A DNA stretch of 36,440 nucleotides from a virus (taxonomy: Duplodnaviria; Heunggongvirae; Uroviricota; Caudoviricetes), in the IMG/VR virus record IMGVR_UViG_2778261172_000005, positions 1-36,440 of that record; one strand, given 5' to 3'. The notes under the pieces were generated by a model, which saw only the letters and a program-made list of their open reading frames with translations, did not search any database and was not told where the DNA came from. Positions 7,047-13,992 of this stretch are shown piece after piece; within the stretch, counting starts at the first letter, position 1, and the number at the start of each line of letters is the position of its first letter. Made by a program: the position numbers and the translations under genes.

Positions 7047-8237
7047 TTAATTGCTGTTAACCGAGGTGACCAGATTTGCCAGGTATTTATCGGTAATACG
7101 CTGGCGCAGGGTCAGGTTTTCAAGAGGAGGCACCGGTGTATAGTCGTAGTCGATATACAGTTTTCCGGCCTTGAGGGTTTCCGCATCGTTGGATTCTTCG
7201 CTGAACCAGCAGGTCGCATCCACGATATAGCCGTTTGTTTTCAGCTCACGGAATTTGGCATTGATGCCGTCAACGATGTCGCGAATCAGCGTTGCGGTGA
7301 TGGGCTTGTCCACCGCCCACATGTGCGCCTCAGCCATCGTGTCGGCCAGCACCTGCGCGGTGCGGGTGTAGTTTTCAAAGAGGAACAGCGGGTCATCAGA
7401 GCAGGTACGGTTACCCCAGAATCGGAAACCGTCGCGGCGAATAATCGTAGTGACGCCTGACTCGTTCAACAGGTCAGCATCGGTGCCGGACTCCTGCAAA
7501 TCCCAGAATACAGAAGCACTGATGCCGGTAACACCGTTTACCCCGACATTGGACAGCGTTTTATGCCAGCCCTGCTCCTGGTCGATTTTAGCGCGCAGAC
7601 CCAGCGCACGGGCGGTGGCATACGCGGTGGCGGTGGAGCTGCTGACCGTATCCCATGCGAGGAAATCCGGCCAGATGACCATCAGCTCACGCTGGCTGAA
7701 ATTCTGGCGGTAGGCTTTCACCTCGGAAATGGTTTTACAGCCCCATGCGCTGATATACCCGAAAGCGCGCAGCTTCTGACAGACTGATGCCAGTGCAACA
7801 GCCACCTCTTTGGTGTCCAGTCCCGGCACGCCGAGAATACGCGGTTTAACACCGGTTACTGACTCCGCCGCCAGCAGGGCTTTCAGTCCGGTGTACTGAC
7901 CGTTTTCGTCGGTGGTGCCGATGATATTGGAAACGGTCTGCGCGAGTTTCGTTTCTTCGTCTTCGCCGGTGCCGTCTTCCACACGCACGACAACGGTGAC
8001 CGGTTTTGACTGGTCGGCGATGGCCTGTAACGATGCCGCCAGCGTGCCTTTTTTACCGGCCTTTGCAATTGCGCTCTGGGCATTGGTAATCAGCACAGGT
8101 TTATTGAGGGGGAAGGTTTCCGCATCCGCATCGCTGGCCGTGCAGACCATGCCGACAATGGCAGTGGATACGGTGGAAATGACGCGGGTGCCGTCGTTAA
8201 TCTCCAGCACCTGCACGCCATGATGATAGTCACTCAT
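7047..8237 (-). CDS. FI: contractile tail sheath protein (P2 gpFI-like)
   Basis: 396-aa ORF; sequence and synteny. Confidence 0.9.
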   Translation of the reverse strand: MSDYHHGVQVLEINDGTRVISTVSTAIVGMVCTASDADAETFPLNKPVLITNAQSAIAKAGKKGTLAASLQAIADQSKPVTVVVRVEDGTGEDEETKLAQTVSNIIGTTDENGQYTGLKALLAAESVTGVKPRILGVPGLDTKEVAVALASVCQKLRAFGYISAWGCKTISEVKAYRQNFSQRELMVIWPDFLAWDTVSSSTATAYATARALGLRAKIDQEQGWHKTLSNVGVNGVTGISASVFWDLQESGTDADLLNESGVTTIIRRDGFRFWGNRTCSDDPLFLFENYTRTAQVLADTMAEAHMWAVDKPITATLIRDIVDGINAKFRELKTNGYIVDATCWFSEESNDAETLKAGKLYIDYDYTPVPPLENLTLRQRITDKYLANLVTSVNSN

Positions 8238-8333
8238 CCGTTTAACTCCGTGGTTAATGGGTGCAACTATTTTCTGTTGTGCAGAGCATGAGACGCTATT
8301 TGACCTGGCTGGTCAGTGGATGAAACAACAGAT

Positions 8334-8360
8334 AAAGAAAAGGCGGGCAATTCGCCCGCC
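8334..8360 (-). terminator. rho-independent terminator between the Z/fun-position cargo and FI
   Basis: Perfect 7-bp inverted repeat GGCGGGC/GCCCGCC with 5-nt loop, followed on the minus strand by TTTTCTTT. Confidence 0.5.
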
Positions 8361-8581
8361 TGTCCTGATTTGTACTCACTCATTTTCCGACTGACAATTT
8401 ACATAACCCAAACGCTATCAATTCTGACAGTCTGCTTTGAGCGAAAAGTGGAAGTTCGCAATTATCCTCACCACTGATAAGTAGCCTTTACTTACAATGT
8501 AATGTGTTAGCTAATGTAATAGGAGCTGAGCAGTGAATTATGAATGGATGCTTTAGTTCATATTTGGGAACAAATTACTGT

Positions 8582-8606
8582 AAAAAAAACCGGCTTACAC
8601 CGGTTT
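8582..8606 (-). terminator. rho-independent terminator immediately downstream of the 305-aa cargo gene
   Basis: Inverted repeat AAACCGG/CCGGTTT with 6-nt loop, followed on the minus strand by an 8-T tract (plus-strand AAAAAAAA). Confidence 0.6.
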
Positions 8607-8661
8607 AAACTCGCTCGCGAGAATCACCCCCCAAATTATATGCAAAATTAAAAATACCAAT

Positions 8662-9579
8662 TCACTCCATTTCTCTTTTGGCTAATTCTTCCCATTCGTC
8701 GATTGAGTTATTATAAGGAAATACCTCTTTAACTATGAAAGGAATGTAGCTTTCTTCAGCATTGTGATGTATTTCATTACTGATATTACTTGTGATTCCG
8801 AATTTTACGTCAGGATCGTTTTCAGAGAAATGTATATGAAAAGGTTGTTGACCTAAAGCCTGTCTAATTTTATTTGCTTGTTCTGATGGAAGGACTTTAA
8901 GTAGCTGTTTGAATGTTTTTTTATTAAAGTCTAGAGAAATGGCCATATCAATATCTCCGGGTATCATAGATATGCACGTGTATGACCGTTCGCTCAATCG
9001 ACTAATAAATTTAGTATTTATAGCAGGGGCACTAAAAGAACCATCTTTAACCAAACCCATTTTTCGAATATGAATTCCAAAATCAGGTGCATAACTCAAG
9101 ACATCCGGATTGGCTTTAATATCTGGATTTAATATCCTAAATAATTTTTCCCAGTAATTACCAATGTCTTTCAAAGAAAATCTGAGTATTGGGTGGAGTT
9201 CCCGTATACTATATAGAACAAATTCATTCCCATTGCACAATGCATACATTTCTGCCCTTATTTCTGGATGTATAGCATAACTATAGGCTTGCTCAACGTG
9301 CATGCTTTTGGTTATTTTTTCATTAGGGGCCTTTGCATCAAGAATCCAATATGGTCGGTCGTTAGAAAGAAAAACATAATCCGGTACTATTGAAATCTTT
9401 CTTGGCTGTGAACCTATTGAGACAAATGGATGTGTAAGCGTTTTGCTCCTGATTACACGACTATCTCCCGATGCTTTATAACCAAGAGCTTTAATAATTG
9501 GTAAAATCAACTCTTCTCTGACTGAATCCTCTTTAAATTCATCTGAGCTTAGTAAGTTAAAATCAAAATCATCAAACAT
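8662..9579 (-). CDS. cargo protein with N-terminal PD-(D/E)xK restriction-endonuclease-like domain (HsdR-N/Mrr-like), 305 aa; candidate defence nuclease
   Basis: Motifs E-x...PDYVF...WILDAK...EQAYSYA in the order typical of the PD-(D/E)xK fold; AT-rich gene at the FI-G position where P2 carries Z/fun; own terminator; ATG preceded by a G-run SD. Confidence 0.6.
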   Translation of the reverse strand: MFDDFDFNLLSSDEFKEDSVREELILPIIKALGYKASGDSRVIRSKTLTHPFVSIGSQPRKISIVPDYVFLSNDRPYWILDAKAPNEKITKSMHVEQAYSYAIHPEIRAEMYALCNGNEFVLYSIRELHPILRFSLKDIGNYWEKLFRILNPDIKANPDVLSYAPDFGIHIRKMGLVKDGSFSAPAINTKFISRLSERSYTCISMIPGDIDMAISLDFNKKTFKQLLKVLPSEQANKIRQALGQQPFHIHFSENDPDVKFGITSNISNEIHHNAEESYIPFIVKEVFPYNNSIDEWEELAKREME

Positions 9580-9900
9580 ATCCCCCCCACATATATTTAT
9601 TTGACAAAAGATGTATAATTCAAATTATTCAGAGCCATTGTAAATCACTATAGAATAAAAAGATAATTTCAAGTGGAGGTGTTATCTGATTTTTTGATTT
9701 ATAGCACAAAAAACGACCTCTACAGGCTGTTTATTACGATAGTTAAAGCTGATCACATTTAGGCAGTCAGTCCAAGATGCTCTCTTCAACATGGCCTAGG
9801 TTTTTTTACCGTCGAAGAAGATAATTGTGTCCATAGCATGATGCTTTCAAGTGGTATGATCTCTTTCTCAGTGATTCATGCAGTATGAGCCTAGCAACTT

Positions 9901-9934
9901 CTGCTTCTGGCACAGGGCGGACTTTCTGACTGAG
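9901..9934. repeat. 34-bp direct repeat, copy 1 (CTGCTTCTGGCACAGGGCGGACT...), flanking the DUF2971-like gene
   Basis: About 80 percent identical to 11060..11093, with the first 23 nt matching at 21 positions. Confidence 0.6.
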
Positions 9935-10090
9935 TTGAAGGTCTGCTGCGACCGAATATCGGACATTAATAACCTCAGAGACATAGCGCCCTTGAAATGC
10001 ACCCCTCCAGAAATGAAAATCTGTTATGATACTAGCATAAACTATTTATTTTTCAGTAAAGTTTAGAAAACAAATTTTTATGAATAGAAA

Positions 10091-10113
10091 AAAGGAGAAC
10101 AATGCCCTCCTTC
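10091..10113 (-). terminator. possible terminator downstream of the DUF2971-like gene
   Basis: Inverted repeat AAGGAG/CTCCTT with 9-nt loop, followed by a T-rich run on the minus strand; imperfect. Confidence 0.35.
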
Positions 10114-10130
10114 TTTATTTTTAAATTCTA

Positions 10131-10859
10131 CTACAATTTAATTTTTAGTCTTTTAGGAGCATCGTATAGAGTAGATATTTTTATTTCGGCTTTACAACCC
10201 TTATCCTCAATTGCCAATGTGTATGCCTGCCTTAAGTTTTTTTCCATTCTTGGGTCAAATAGCACGGTGTCTAATAGTTCAACTGGATTAATTTCAAACT
10301 GGAAAATATCATTATCGACACTATTATCATCACCAGAATATATTAAACGAACTTCGCTTTCGTGTTCAAACTCCACGCGTTTGTATAAAAGCGATTCAGC
10401 AATGCCTGAGCCATTAGTGTTGAATAAATCAATTGACAAGAGTTTTTCCGAAAGAGTATCCTCCGGAAGATAAGAAACCTTGCCTATAAAACACCTTAAA
10501 TTATGGTAAGTCGGCTCTGCTTTTTGAAGTGCGGCTAATAGTTTTCTTGGTGTGGTTGAAACTCTTACACCATTTTTATCATGGGAATATATCCGCCACA
10601 TTGCATCGGTTTCACTATGAAATGTCCAGCATTGCCCATAAACAGAATCTCTTGCGGCAACTGTTCCTGTTTGACCATCAGAAGTTTCAATTACACAATT
10701 TAATAAAGCGTTCTCAAAAGGGTCATCCCATTTTCTTGGTTTTACTAAAGTTAATTTTTTTTCTTCAAGCAATTGAAGAAAACGGTGTATTGGCATAATT
10801 CTATAAATAGGTATATCCAATGATTCATCTGTTAAATTAATATAGTTATTATAGCTCAT
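10131..10859 (-). CDS. DUF2971-like cargo protein, 242 aa; candidate single-gene defence or abortive-infection factor
   Basis: N-terminal IYRIMPIHRFLQLLEEKKL...PRKWDDPFE matches my recollection of the DUF2971 signature (YR.P..RF...L...L...P..F.DP.E); strongly AT-rich; flanked by direct repeats. Confidence 0.5.
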   Translation of the reverse strand: MSYNNYINLTDESLDIPIYRIMPIHRFLQLLEEKKLTLVKPRKWDDPFENALLNCVIETSDGQTGTVAARDSVYGQCWTFHSETDAMWRIYSHDKNGVRVSTTPRKLLAALQKAEPTYHNLRCFIGKVSYLPEDTLSEKLLSIDLFNTNGSGIAESLLYKRVEFEHESEVRLIYSGDDNSVDNDIFQFEINPVELLDTVLFDPRMEKNLRQAYTLAIEDKGCKAEIKISTLYDAPKRLKIKL

Positions 10860-11059
10860 ACATATTGACCTTTTGGTAGTTAGTGTAATTAAAAAGGCGG
10901 TTGGGATATTTTAGCAAAAACCTAAGAACTGATTCAACCCTGCGGACTTACAGATTTCAGTTCATATATCCAATGTTATAAATTCTCATTTATGAACTAT
11001 TCTCCTAAAATTTTTTGATTTCAATCTTTAGAGAGCGCAAAAGACCTATGTTCGAATGA

Positions 11060-11093
11060 CTGCTTTTGGCACAGAGCGGACTGTCAGATTAGG
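11060..11093. repeat. 34-bp direct repeat, copy 2; its 5' part also forms a 10-bp inverted repeat (TGGCACAGAG...CTCTGTGCCA, 11067..11108)
   Basis: Matches 9901..9934; the inverted-repeat partner is present only at this copy. Confidence 0.6.
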
Positions 11094-11142
11094 CTTTACT
11101 CTGTGCCATAGATATGTAAGCTCACACCAGAGTTCATACAAC

Positions 11143-11670
11143 TTATTGCGGCATTTCCGGCCATTCAGGATTTGCAGGATCCACACGACTGACCAGAACG
11201 CTGTAGCGTTCCCAAGCCTCCAGCCGTGTGCGCTCCTCCTCTGTTGCCATGTTCAGTCTGACCGCGCGCTCCAGCGGCAAAATCACGGATTCAGCATCTG
11301 CAAGAAGTCTGGCTTTCCGAATTTCTGCCTGCTGCTGTAATTCCTCTGCCGTATAAATGCGTTTAATCACTTTGCCGTCCTTAAACATCCAGCCCCCTGA
11401 AATATCCGCCCGTCGGTTAGCAGTAATATCCGCCACTTCAACCACACTTAATCCATCCGGTCTGATAGCTGTCACATCCTTTTCCACATAGCGGATGATA
11501 TTATCTTTGTCGTACGCTATTTTTATCGTGTCATCAGCAAAATACTTTTGTTCTTCGTACCAGTTCTTACCATCTTCTGTAAAAAACCAGACAACATCAA
11601 AGCCCTTTGTCAATTGATATTGTTCAACTGTTTTTGGATTACCCGCCGTTATATTTATCAAATGCTGCAT
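11143..11670 (-). CDS. G: tail fibre assembly protein (P2 gpG-like)
   Basis: 175-aa ORF downstream of H; sequence and synteny. Confidence 0.85.
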
Positions 11671-11673
11671 AAA

Positions 11674-13992
11674 TTATACCTGCGCTACGTTATACCATGT
11701 CCCGTTAATGTATTTCTGCACCGGTCTGTAATATATGCCACCAATGTTATCGGCAGAGTTTGAGCCGGTATCCTGAACAATAATGCCGGAATATACACAC
11801 CCGGACGGTGCCTGATGTGTCCATGTCATGCCATTGTTCGCAGGTTTGTATGTGGCAGCACCACCAAGCCGGATATCCCGGACATAGCGTGAATCAAAGT
11901 TGCCATAGTTAGATGGTGATACCTGCCCGTTAACAGCAAAAGTGATGCTGTTATCTGTATTTCTCTGACTGTAAAAATGCCAGCCTGCATCATCACCTAA
12001 TTCAGCCACCACCGGACGACTTGAGTTTCCCCACAAATTGAATGCGGCTTCCTTCGTGGATGTATTACTGCTGCTGACCGTGAATTTTTTCCCGCTACCG
12101 GCACGTACTTTGGTACTTGAGACAATATCACCAGTAACATTCAGGCCATGCCCCATTGATACAGCACCAGTGGCATCATTTATAATCAGCGGTCTTAAAT
12201 TATTATAAGTGCCTAATCTGTCACCTGATTTAGTCAACATAAAATAAGTGCTGCTGCCATCATTCCTGATAAAGAAACCATAATTGCCATAAGCAATGCG
12301 CAGACCATTAGCACTGAGTGATGTAATCTCACCTCTTGAACGGAGACCATAAGCGGAGCTGAGTGATAATTCTTCCTGAGCATCAGTATTACCAGTCGCC
12401 CAACGAACTACCCCGCCCTGTACTGTTTCATGCCAGATAGTGTCTCCTTCTCCACCACGAAACTTTCTGAGATATTTTTTGCCGCCTCTTGTGCCTGAAC
12501 ATAAGGCCGTAGACATATAGGCATTCTGGCTTCCACCGTCCTGATTAATCGTTCCGGTCATTGCGTCGCCCTGACGATTCCAGTCACGACGCCAGCCGGG
12601 GGAGTAGCCGTCCCCATGATTAATGTAAGTGAATTGTGCGCTGGTTGTACCGCCACCGCTTGATGTTGTCGGCGTGGTCACTCGGATAGTGATTGCAGAT
12701 TTAGTTCCCATGACCTCGACGACACAACCAGCCAGGTGGATATCACCACATCCGGTATCCGTAATGATTTTGTTATTTGCATATGACCAGGAGCCTTTGC
12801 ACATCCAGTACGGATGATTAAATGCACCACGGGAATCCAGCCATTCAATAAACTGAGCGGTTGTCCAGTTTCCGGCTTCAGTGCTCAAAGCGCCGCTATA
12901 AGCACGACAGGCACCGATATTTTTCGTGAAGGTATCCTTTCCCGGAATATCCGCACCATTCTGATCTTTCTGAAGACGTTTTTCAGCATTGTCATAGGCA
13001 GACTTCACCGCTTTTGATGTTGCGGCCAGCGTTTCAGAATCACTGTTGGTGGCGCTACTGAGCTGGACAAGCCCTTTTCGCGCCGTGGTGGCATCCTGTG
13101 CAGTGTATTTCCCGTTAGCAAGGTCATACGCAGCCTTTACCGCCTTTGGCGTTGCCGCAAGCGTTTCAGCCGTGCTGTTAGTGGCACTACTGAGCTGGAC
13201 AAGGCCTTTTCGCGCTATGGTGGCGTCCTGTGCGGTATATTTCCCGTTAGCAAGGTCATACGCGGCCTTTACCGCTTTCGGCGTTGCGGCTAGCGTTTCA
13301 GACGTGCTGTTGGTCACACTACTGAGCTGAACAAGGCCTTTTCGCGCCGTGGTGGCATCCTGCGCAGTATATTTCCCGTTAGCAAGGTCATAGGCGGCCT
13401 TTACCGCTTTCGGCGTTGCGGCCAGTGTTTCAGACGTGCTGTTGGTCGCACTGCTTAACTGAGTAAAACCTTTTGCGGTCAGCGAGGCGTCCGGGTGACG
13501 TCGTGACTGTTCGTGCTCTGCAATTTTGTCATCAACGTAATCCTGCGTTGCCATCACCGTTGTGGTGTCAATGGTCAGCTCCACTGAGGCCACACTGCTG
13601 ACGATGATGACCATGCGGCAGGTCTGCGAACGCCCTGAGCCTTCGGCAAGAGCTGGCTTATAACTTTCGGCCATGTTCGCCACGGCAATTAACGTTCCCG
13701 CATCATCGTACAGGCCAAGCTCACGCATCCAGAAACCGCCCACCTCCGGCGGAATAACCAGCTCTGCGATAATATAATTACTGTTTCGTTTGTCCTGACT
13801 GATTTTGTTCAGCGCATGTCGCCAGACTTCGTGGATAAGCCCGGTCTGTCCGGCATCCGGGACAGGCAATTTACCACCGCCATCCCCGACGGCCATCGTG
13901 GTAATGTTGACCTTCCGCCCTTCCGGCGCGGTTGCCGCTGCCAGCTTTGCTGCACCGGCAGTGGTGATAACGGTTCTGAATTTTGTGCTCAT
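11674..13992 (-). CDS. H: tail fibre protein (P2 gpH-like) with four internal 44-aa tandem repeats
   Basis: 772-aa ORF; repeated unit KGLVQLSSATNSTSETLAATPKAVKAAYDLANGKYTAQDATTAR; position between I and G. Confidence 0.85.
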   Translation of the reverse strand: MSTKFRTVITTAGAAKLAAATAPEGRKVNITTMAVGDGGGKLPVPDAGQTGLIHEVWRHALNKISQDKRNSNYIIAELVIPPEVGGFWMRELGLYDDAGTLIAVANMAESYKPALAEGSGRSQTCRMVIIVSSVASVELTIDTTTVMATQDYVDDKIAEHEQSRRHPDASLTAKGFTQLSSATNSTSETLAATPKAVKAAYDLANGKYTAQDATTARKGLVQLSSVTNSTSETLAATPKAVKAAYDLANGKYTAQDATIARKGLVQLSSATNSTAETLAATPKAVKAAYDLANGKYTAQDATTARKGLVQLSSATNSDSETLAATSKAVKSAYDNAEKRLQKDQNGADIPGKDTFTKNIGACRAYSGALSTEAGNWTTAQFIEWLDSRGAFNHPYWMCKGSWSYANNKIITDTGCGDIHLAGCVVEVMGTKSAITIRVTTPTTSSGGGTTSAQFTYINHGDGYSPGWRRDWNRQGDAMTGTINQDGGSQNAYMSTALCSGTRGGKKYLRKFRGGEGDTIWHETVQGGVVRWATGNTDAQEELSLSSAYGLRSRGEITSLSANGLRIAYGNYGFFIRNDGSSTYFMLTKSGDRLGTYNNLRPLIINDATGAVSMGHGLNVTGDIVSSTKVRAGSGKKFTVSSSNTSTKEAAFNLWGNSSRPVVAELGDDAGWHFYSQRNTDNSITFAVNGQVSPSNYGNFDSRYVRDIRLGGAATYKPANNGMTWTHQAPSGCVYSGIIVQDTGSNSADNIGGIYYRPVQKYINGTWYNVAQV
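12990..13490. repeat. tandem array of about 3.8 copies of a 132-bp unit inside gene H
   Basis: Units begin at about 13031, 13163, 13295 and 13427, with partial copies at both ends; copies differ at a few positions. Confidence 0.8.

Follow-up and report, generated by a model that had tools for sequence, protein, structure and literature searches.

In P2-like phages, the interval between the tail-fibre assembly gene G and the tail sheath gene FI is a variable locus that in phage P2 is occupied by fun(Z). A review (PMC8987985) credits Nilsson et al. 2004 with the inverted repeats that flank fun in P2-like coliphages and, in its account of the locus, presents the proposal that fun(Z) cargo is exchanged site-specifically with bacterial genomes. 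Anti-phage hotspots of P2 and P4 were described by Rousset et al. 2022 (PMC9122126), in a paper whose searchable text returned no hit for 'inverted repeat' or DUF2971. We analyzed a 36,440-nucleotide viral sequence (IMG/VR record IMGVR_UViG_2778261172_000005, hereafter the window), a P2-like prophage 100% identical to the E. coli JNEC-KY180 chromosome (NZ_AP045177.1), in which an earlier sequence-only reading (the initial annotation) had noted a gene between two 34-bp direct repeats. We consider it likely that these two repeats are same-orientation copies of a conserved ~34-bp recombination-type site, and that such sites bound swappable cargo cassettes of the P2 G-FI interval that are exchanged site-specifically.

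The window shares with the fun(Z) repeats of Nilsson et al. 2004, as the review presents them, the G-FI locus, foreign AT-rich cargo and inverted-repeat flanks, and in phage P2 a position weight matrix (PWM) built for the site from related phages detects sites to either side of fun(Z). Its layout differs from that of fun(Z) in having four sites, two tandem cassettes and a back-to-back junction. With the hotspots of Rousset et al. 2022 it has in common the same kind of variable P2 locus and defence-type cargo, and a solitary version of one of its cassettes follows a P4-like primase gene (L217). Swapping of hotspot cargo is usually ascribed to recombination in flanking core genes, whereas the cargo limits here coincide to the nucleotide with lox-like sites. 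Cassettes of unrelated phages and of chromosomal arrays are delimited by these sites as well, which makes the hotspot a testable mechanism; for the window alone the result is modest, as the known P2 Z/fun locus gains one more example, with two cassettes.

In engineered cassette exchange, heterospecific lox or FRT sites of 34 bp, composed of inverted half-sites, are used as two variants that differ only in their centres and flank a segment in inverted orientation. The window sites belong to a natural system, in which the difference between centres may have a comparable role. The dif (pdif) modules of Acinetobacter plasmids, which are moved by XerC/XerD, are bounded by inverted ~28-bp sites with the order half-site, 6-bp centre, half-site, and form serial modules with toxin-type cargo. 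The window sites have this same architecture, and a trans-acting recombinase such as serves the dif modules is proposed for them below; dif modules share one site, whereas adjacent cassettes in the window are separated by two sites 4 nt apart. Compared by eye with E. coli dif, the site shows no resemblance. Apparent similarities to ERIC, to Tn3-family terminal repeats, to the half-sites of gamma-delta res site I (GTCYG) and to the Rci shufflon core (GTGCCAA) are short, and we take them to be leads only. Integron cassettes are alike in forming arrays, in being separated by imperfect palindromes of ~72 nt, each composed of two simple sites in inverted orientation, and in carrying defence cargo; they differ in core motifs, in crossover position and in their use of IntI, and window-type cassettes have their own promoters.

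The tail genes J, I and H (11674-13992), G (11143-11670; Caudo_TAP), FI (7047-8237; sheath) and FII of the window all lie on the minus strand, with G and FI identified by Pfam. Between G and FI, upstream of the late-operon terminator, are two AT-rich genes on this same strand, with open reading frames (ORFs) of 242 aa (10131-10859) and 305 aa (8662-9579). They stand where phage P2 has fun(Z), and the hotspot is also called Z/fun. The 242-aa ORF and both flanking repeats of the initial annotation, at 9901-9934 (CTGCTTCTGGCACAGGGCGGACTTTCTGACTGAG) and 11060-11093 (CTGCTTTTGGCACAGAGCGGACTGTCAGATTAGG), were present as described, with agreement at 21/23 and 27/34 positions. The degenerate 23-mer, at three or fewer mismatches, occurs only in these two places in 36 kb and in none of 100 shuffles. 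A repeat finder returned a third copy that had been missed, inverted, at 8423-8448 and 85% complementary to 11063-11088.

Scanning with the PWM, we found that only 5 of 72,814 window positions score 0 or above, four sites among them. Along the plus strand the order is R, 305-aa gene, L', CTGA, R', DUF2971 gene (the 242-aa ORF) and L, that is, two tandem cassettes, L-DUF2971-R' and L'-305-aa HsdR_N-like gene-R. The L site (11055-11088, minus strand), which reads TCTGACAGTCCGCTC TGTGCC AAAAGCAGTCATT from outer to inner end, scores 49.1 and occupies the same position in 44 occupied P2 loci, and the R site (8423-8456, plus strand; TCTGACAGTCTGCTT TGAGCG AAAAGTGGAAGTT), inverted relative to L, scores 50.8. 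The internal L' site (9896-9929, minus strand; TCAGAAAGTCCGCCC TGTGCC AGAAGCAGAAGTT) scores 34.1. Its neighbor R' (9934-9967, plus strand; GTTGAAGGTCTGCTG CGACCG AATATCGGACATT) is degenerate: it scores 2.7, the fourth best of the 72,814 positions, and matches the R consensus at 25/34 positions in a hand alignment, and it has a well-preserved counterpart in the same place next to the DUF2971 genes of E. coli SE11 and of viral contig L083. R' and L' stand back to back across the 4-nt linker CTGA (9930-9933, no strand assigned), and 9896-9967 is a 72-nt composite junction.

The two copies of the initial annotation thus correspond to L' and L, which are the L-type members of neighboring cassettes, with the population-defined sites (9896-9929 and 11055-11088) offset from these copies by 5 nt. 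Its view of the repeats as module boundaries holds, and its view of the direct-repeat pair as the unit does not, as in each cassette an L-type site is paired with an R-type site in inverted orientation. The AT-richness that it ascribed to the gene is real (GC 0.29-0.39 over 9950-11000 versus 0.54-0.58 in the tail genes) and is shared by the 305-aa cassette, which is equally AT-rich. The ~550-bp gap described between the two genes exists (551 bp, 9580-10130), but is not featureless, holding a terminator-like hairpin, the 72-nt two-site junction and promoter-like sites of the 305-aa gene. The cargo of cassette 1 (9968-11054, minus strand; GC 0.29-0.39) comprises the DUF2971 gene, promoter-like sites at 10937-10908 and 11024-10996 on the minus strand, and a terminator-like AAGGAG..CTCCTT hairpin with a T-run near 10088-10115, read by eye and not flagged by the terminator scan; 83% nucleotide homology to E. 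coli SE11 extends across 9936-10873. That of cassette 2 (8457-9895, minus strand; GC 0.33-0.40) comprises the 305-aa gene, promoter-like sites (one at 9644-9615) and a terminator found by the scan (8606-8587, minus strand). An Rfam search of 8200-11200 gave no credible family.

We compared the window with 80 P2-like loci from IMG/VR, in which the G-FI junction is found in three mutually exclusive states: empty, occupied by site-bounded cargo, or occupied by a Din-type invertase. In the five empty loci (L005, L013, L057, L068 and L071) the G-FI distance is only 131-135 nt (TAA-ACA-CAGGCGGGC...GCCCGCCTTTTCTTT), an interval that comprises the stop codon of G, the terminator of the late operon and the promoter of FI, and contains zero sites. 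In the occupied state (~44 loci, 1.1-4.4 kb), L lies 46-61 nt past the G stop and an inverted R lies ~214 nt before FI; the PWM scan found no sites in these loci outside the G-FI L and R positions. An alignment of P2-like FI-G regions, which the initial annotation had suggested, showed that its second repeat copy is a conserved junction, as the L site stands at this position in 44/46 occupied hotspots and in 0/5 empty ones. Conservation among occupied hotspots ends abruptly, with ...GGAC(G/A)TT as its left-hand limit and AA(T/C)GTCC... as its right-hand one. Comparison of empty with occupied junctions gave no clean target-site duplication at the P2 insertion.

The sequence between the cassettes and the backbone is also specific to occupied hotspots. 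The outer-left flank, from the G stop to the L site (11089-11142, minus strand), is kept in occupied P2 hotspots and missing from empty ones, and is weakly conserved in the non-P2 contexts L219 and L083 as well. It holds one arm of the 10-bp inverted repeat with 22-nt loop that the initial annotation had reported: the repeat exists, with TGGCACAGAG at 11067-11076 and CTCTGTGCCA at 11099-11108, so that the first arm lies one base below the position given there (11068-11077). As single-stranded DNA this inverted repeat beside L folds with -9.8 kcal/mol (z = -3.0 versus shuffles). The part of 11089-11142 that pairs with L resembles a reversed fragment of an L-type site (centre plus partial half-site) and is kept in all occupied P2 hotspots. 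The outer-right flank, from the R site to the late-operon terminator (8363-8422, minus strand), is likewise kept in occupied hotspots and missing from empty ones. The rho-independent terminator of the V-G late operon (8341-8361, minus strand), placed by the terminator scan and the empty-site sequences, directly follows the G stop in empty hotspots and therefore marks the FI-side edge of the insertion.

In the third state (16 loci: L007, L009, L014, L022, L028, L029, L037, L038, L042, L049, L053, L054, L059, L060, L065 and L072), a Din-type invertase gene is found 108 nt upstream of FI, beside an invertible tail-fibre segment and without sites. A link between the sites and Din-family invertases (hix/gix/pix) had been prompted by the lambdoid-type viral contig L083, and was rejected because invertase and sites are mutually exclusive in P2-like loci. 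In L083 (2743-6665), a cassette of a DUF2971 gene and a gene for a 205-aa protein lies between two convergent tail-fibre C-terminal genes (Peptidase_S74), beside a Hin/Pin-type invertase, and the ~55-nt flanks outside its sites are P2-like. This arrangement hints that the P2 hotspot descended from the centre of an invertible tail-fibre segment.

Across these loci the site is ~34 bp long and consists of two imperfect inverted half-sites of 9-12 bp, with consensus (ACA)GTCCGCTCT and AGAGCGGAC(RTT), that flank a 6-bp centre. The centre has two forms, GTGCCA in L-type and GAGCGA in R-type sites, which gives consensus sequences, in the same reading direction, of ACAGTCCGCTCT-GTGCCA-AGAGCGGACGTT for L and ACAGTCTGCTTT-GAGCGA-AAAGCGGACATT for R, with a median dyad match of 7/9 for L and 6/9 for R. 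Cargo in the occupied P2-like loci sorts into 30 unrelated clusters, among which the site's outer 21 nt are near-invariant (1.77 bits/position), and the inner 13 nt are specific to the cargo: identical within a cluster, distinct in 27-28 of 30 between clusters, and still in agreement with the consensus ARRAGCGGACRTT in every cargo cluster (1.1-1.25 bits/position).

The two centre forms obey a strict pairing rule. Among 99 distinct inverted pairs that flank a cassette in all collected loci, L/R pairs number 80, a further 19 contain one variant centre, and there is no L/L or R/R pair. Adjacent -/+ site pairs are spaced at a 38-nt offset in 20/25 cases, and 15 of the 16 distinct 72-nt composites combine an L-type with an R-type site. 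Hybrid centres were seen as TGAGCC and CGAGCC (L134 at 4281; L001 near 5960, the L' of SE11), with the R-type base at position 18 and the L-type base at position 21, as would be expected from a crossover within the 6-bp centre.

Evidence that the sites delimit movement comes from cassettes present in more than one context. The exact pair of 242-aa and 305-aa genes occurs in other P2-like prophages and in a Rac-like lambdoid prophage (L212), where it stands between DicB, cI/Cro, YdaS/T and DUF977 on one side and DUF2513 and HNH on the other. The window and L212 share 2,653 bp at 99.5% identity with unrelated sequence beyond. They differ at 3 of the 16 nt of both outer half-sites versus 10 of ~2,620 internal nt (hand-calculated Poisson p ~4e-5, from the arm strings and BLAST totals), and the final difference falls at site position 15 in both the L and the R arm. 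Among the places listed, every one with the exact 242-aa protein has the 305-aa gene too, and because of this constant association and the 99.5% two-cassette block in L212 we conclude that the two genes recently moved as one unit. L212 itself has further cassettes (HNH, DUF2513) and, at 7877-7990, a composite and, after it, an L site that is duplicated in tandem as a 42-nt unit (7915 and 7957). In the sister prophages L209 (5223-7525) and L214 (6503-8729), an IS21-family element (rve and IstB) lies between the 305-aa gene and the R site.

Each gene is also found without the other. An 83%-identical DUF2971 gene forms one cassette with the 205-aa partner and without the 305-aa gene in E. coli SE11 (in a CP4-like island) and in L083; these two cassettes share 1,809 bp at 98.5% identity and have 5 mismatches in 17 outer nt, with divergence confined to the outer half-sites and the last difference at position 15-16. 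The 205-aa protein (L001, 7097-7714; L083, 4210-4827), which is not encoded in the window, gave only a sub-threshold Rx_N-like match and could be a regulator or partner of the ADP-ribosyltransferase (ART)-like DUF2971 protein. A neighboring 305-aa ORF of SE11 was considered as a relative of the window's 305-aa protein and found to be unrelated despite its equal length. Solitary 305-aa genes, 85-90% identical, lie between L and R sites in a Pectobacterium chromosome, in a P4-like satellite (L217) and in a Klebsiella element, and in the solitary cassettes L217 and L219 the first window position with homology is 9914, corresponding to position 16 of L'. No relatives of the 305-aa gene were found in viral contigs. 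The claim of the initial annotation that the hotspot holds two separable modules is thus borne out, and its corollary of independent acquisition is not supported for this lineage, in which the pair recently moved as a block.

Homology stops at the site centre's edge in each of the four arms compared, with at most 7-8 matching nt on the outer side and unrelated flanks beyond, and these breakpoints lead us to favor site-specific over homologous recombination. We propose that cassettes, single or as blocks, would be exchanged among P2-like phages, lambdoid prophages, P4-like satellites and chromosomal islands by a trans-acting site-specific recombinase, with a crossover at the site centre such that the inner half-site would go with the cargo and the outer half-site would remain in the recipient. 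The crossover could be tyrosine-type, at the edges of the 6-bp centre, or serine-type, at the central GC, and the data fit both. With two centre types, L x R events would be prevented, whereas a cassette or block could still be exchanged through L x L and R x R. An L x L' crossover in the window would excise the DUF2971 cassette as a circle carrying one composite, and integration of such circles could build arrays. A broader and more tentative proposal, which we hold to be possible though somewhat improbable as a whole, is that the sites serve a trans-acting recombination system of Enterobacterales, in which heterospecific variants (GTGCCA, GAGCGA) exchange defence cassettes and stack them via 72-nt composites, making it a natural counterpart of recombinase-mediated cassette exchange (RMCE) distinct from integrons and from Xer/dif modules. 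A full-text literature search with the site strings returned no paper; the L/R rule, the centre breakpoints, the composites and the broad distribution beyond P2 are possibly new to the literature.

Several observations weigh against site-specific exchange of this kind. No recombinase gene is consistently near the sites, and none was seen in the Pfam-annotated loci (8-13 kb); nor did we find an excised circle, a solo-cassette derivative of the window pair or an inversion product. Exchange between P2-like phages could equally use the ~90-bp conserved flanks via homologous recombination. Covariation of the L and R inner halves within one cassette was unsupported (permutation p = 0.27). The window's own sites form no stable hairpins when folded against shuffles (z about 0) and, with their diverged inner half-sites, may be inactive relics. 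Finally, both genes of the window are separately transcribed, AT-rich candidates for anti-phage genes, and the cargo's part in defence is a putative one.

Homologous recombination alone would account for the locus if the sites and their ~55-60-nt outer flanks were conserved P2 backbone, with RecA or phage-recombinase crossovers in the flanks or in G and FI and with the internal copy as the leftover of an unequal crossover. The outer flanks and the outer 21 nt of the site are indeed near-invariant among P2-like phages, the window's sites look degenerate, and the text of Rousset et al. 2022 (PMC9122126), as returned by a search for 'inverted repeat', does not invoke such sites. We nevertheless regard this explanation as unlikely, as transfers between unrelated contexts (P2 and a Rac-like prophage; a lambdoid invertible segment and a CP4-like island) have no homology outside the sites and 4/4 arms break at position 15-16, and as the inner half-sites on 30 unrelated cargoes retain the consensus with 0/99 homotypic pairs. 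A slightly smaller probability attaches to the sites being REP-like structural elements, that is, extragenic palindromes that act as RNA 3'-end stabilisers, terminators, insulators or insertion targets, with a REPIN-like pairing unrelated to exchange. A consensus site can be drawn as a 9-bp stem with a 6-nt loop, back-to-back pairs look like REP doublets, inverted pairs of short palindromes, the mark of REPs and REPINs, are present as the 72-nt composites at 38-nt offset, and alphaproteobacterial genomes contain many copies of a very similar palindrome. The one-L-one-R rule, the fixed 4-nt linker and the breakpoints at the centre are unexpected for passive hairpins; moreover, many real sites, including the window's, fold unstably, their stems lack a T-run, and the alphaproteobacterial matches may be convergent.

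The 72-nt composite also invites comparison with the attC site of integron-type gene cassettes, in which case the arrays would be integrase-less attC clusters served by IntI in trans. It consists of two inverted simple sites with two fixed stem mismatches and terminal AAY...RTT triplets, the arrays of Phytobacter and Superficieibacter contain small, co-oriented, AT-rich ORFs between composites, and a preprint reports integron cassettes that carry defence genes (bioRxiv 10.1101/2024.07.02.601686). We consider this very improbable. RYYYAAC/GTTRRRY cores are absent from the site flanks inspected, and roughly half of the sites have ATT rather than GTT at their end, or AAT at their start; the cargo of a cassette is linked to both of its inner half-sites, with crossovers at the site centre (15-16) and not at G|TT; and the cassettes own promoter-like and terminator-like sites, with no integrase seen in the annotated loci (8-13 kb). 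The attC reading was rejected on the core motifs and the crossover position. Lastly, that the repeat is a chance similarity or a local duplication of no wider meaning, as identity of only 27/34 between the copies might suggest, has a negligible probability: the 100 shuffles gave 0 matches, shuffled 36-kb windows contained no PWM match at threshold 5, and the site recurs in hundreds of independent loci, which rules this explanation out.

The sites extend well beyond P2. An exact-pattern scan of species-representative genomes, using a search pattern that is palindromic by design, returned at least 120 stretches, and the site pattern is present in at least 18 Enterobacterales loci (Proteus, Erwinia, Serratia, Pantoea, Citrobacter, Kosakonia, Rahnella, Phytobacter, Yersinia and others). 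None of the 120 genome stretches listed has P2 FI or G nearby, and among viral contigs 85 of the 115 stretches with the site pattern are without P2 FI and G. Furthermore, the same cassettes were found in lambdoid prophages, a P4-like satellite and chromosomal islands. Junctions of the form R-4 nt-L, 72 nt long, occur in the window, in the P2 loci L044/L048 and L069 and in E. coli SE11, and composites of this length are found in chromosomal arrays of Superficieibacter electus (three), Phytobacter ursingii (two) and P. massiliensis, and in 13 of 115 further viral stretches. The highest site count in any one locus is 8. Cargo outside P2, among the genome matches listed, includes AbiTii and an RnlA toxin gene adjoining a composite. 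The sites could thus be used to delimit and harvest candidate defence cassettes of Enterobacterales, such as DUF2971/PDC-S31, HsdR_N-like, AbiTii and, beside a composite, RnlA.

The Superficieibacter and Phytobacter arrays (L182, 1782-5898; L205, 78-5088; L140, 1422-7307) are low in GC and consist of small cassettes split by composites whose offset is exactly 38 nt. Their layout is integron-like; in L140, the one array with called ORFs, these are small and co-oriented, and no integrase was found within the 8-kb blocks. In Pseudolabrys, Xanthobacteraceae and Hyphomicrobiales, we observed that the palindrome AATGTCCGCTT-TGTGCC/TGGGTC-AAKAGCGGACATT, which is nearly perfect, is present in numerous copies, frequently co-oriented and paired in tandem (L097, L098, L105, L130, L133, L161 and many others within L089-L207). 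These form a REP-like family that shares a core with the enterobacterial sites, possibly through convergence; because the query itself is palindromic, we do not claim homology.

The product of the DUF2971 gene (242 aa; 10131-10859, minus strand) was examined by Pfam, PADLOC and fold comparison. The profile search confirmed the DUF2971 family named by the initial annotation: PF11185 matches with 25.6 bits against a gathering threshold of 22. The signature is not N-terminal, as had been stated there, and lies at residues 87-172, which cover profile positions 1-89 of 89. The protein also matches PADLOC PDC-S31 (PDLC04993) almost end to end (E 1.1e-94; residues 3-241 on profile positions 3-243 of 245). 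We take PDC-S31 to be a candidate single-gene defence system of PADLOC. The protein belongs to a conserved ~242-aa family with 972 detected members across Proteobacteria, and in L210 (2979-3449) the DUF2971 gene is shortened to 156 aa.

The 242-aa protein has structural similarity to solved ADP-ribosyltransferases and a DarT/Tpt1-like (ART) fold. Residues H166, E167, E169, R171, R89, Y91 and S92 are invariant in 48 homologues and, judged from the alignment, would fit an R-S-ExE-type motif. The Lactococcus plasmid DUF2971 protein Aristaios is an anti-phage protein with an abortive-infection phenotype and an ART-like model (PMC11381338); it has 316 aa versus 242 aa for the window protein and is a distant member of the DUF2971 family. 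No gene for a DarG-like antitoxin accompanies the window protein. The putative role of the 242-aa protein is most likely that of an NAD+-dependent ADP-ribosyltransferase acting as an abortive-infection effector.

The 305-aa protein (8662-9579, minus strand; Pfam, PADLOC) is HsdR_N-like, that is, PD-(D/E)xK nuclease-like. It scores 22.8 bits with HSDR_N (PF04313), below the cut-off of 25.1, and weakly matches the N-terminus of PADLOC REase_MTase_IIG (9e-6), and many of its 987 detected homologues have a precomputed PF04313 assignment. On these profile scores it is a borderline HsdR_N relative. NCBIfam and PDB sequence searches with both proteins returned nothing. Outside the hotspot, the translation of the tail-fibre gene H (11674-13992, minus strand) contains four tandem ~46-aa units, at window positions ~12900-13500, with the repeat unit SSxTNSTSETLAATPKAVKAAYDLANGKYTAQDATxARKGLVQL.

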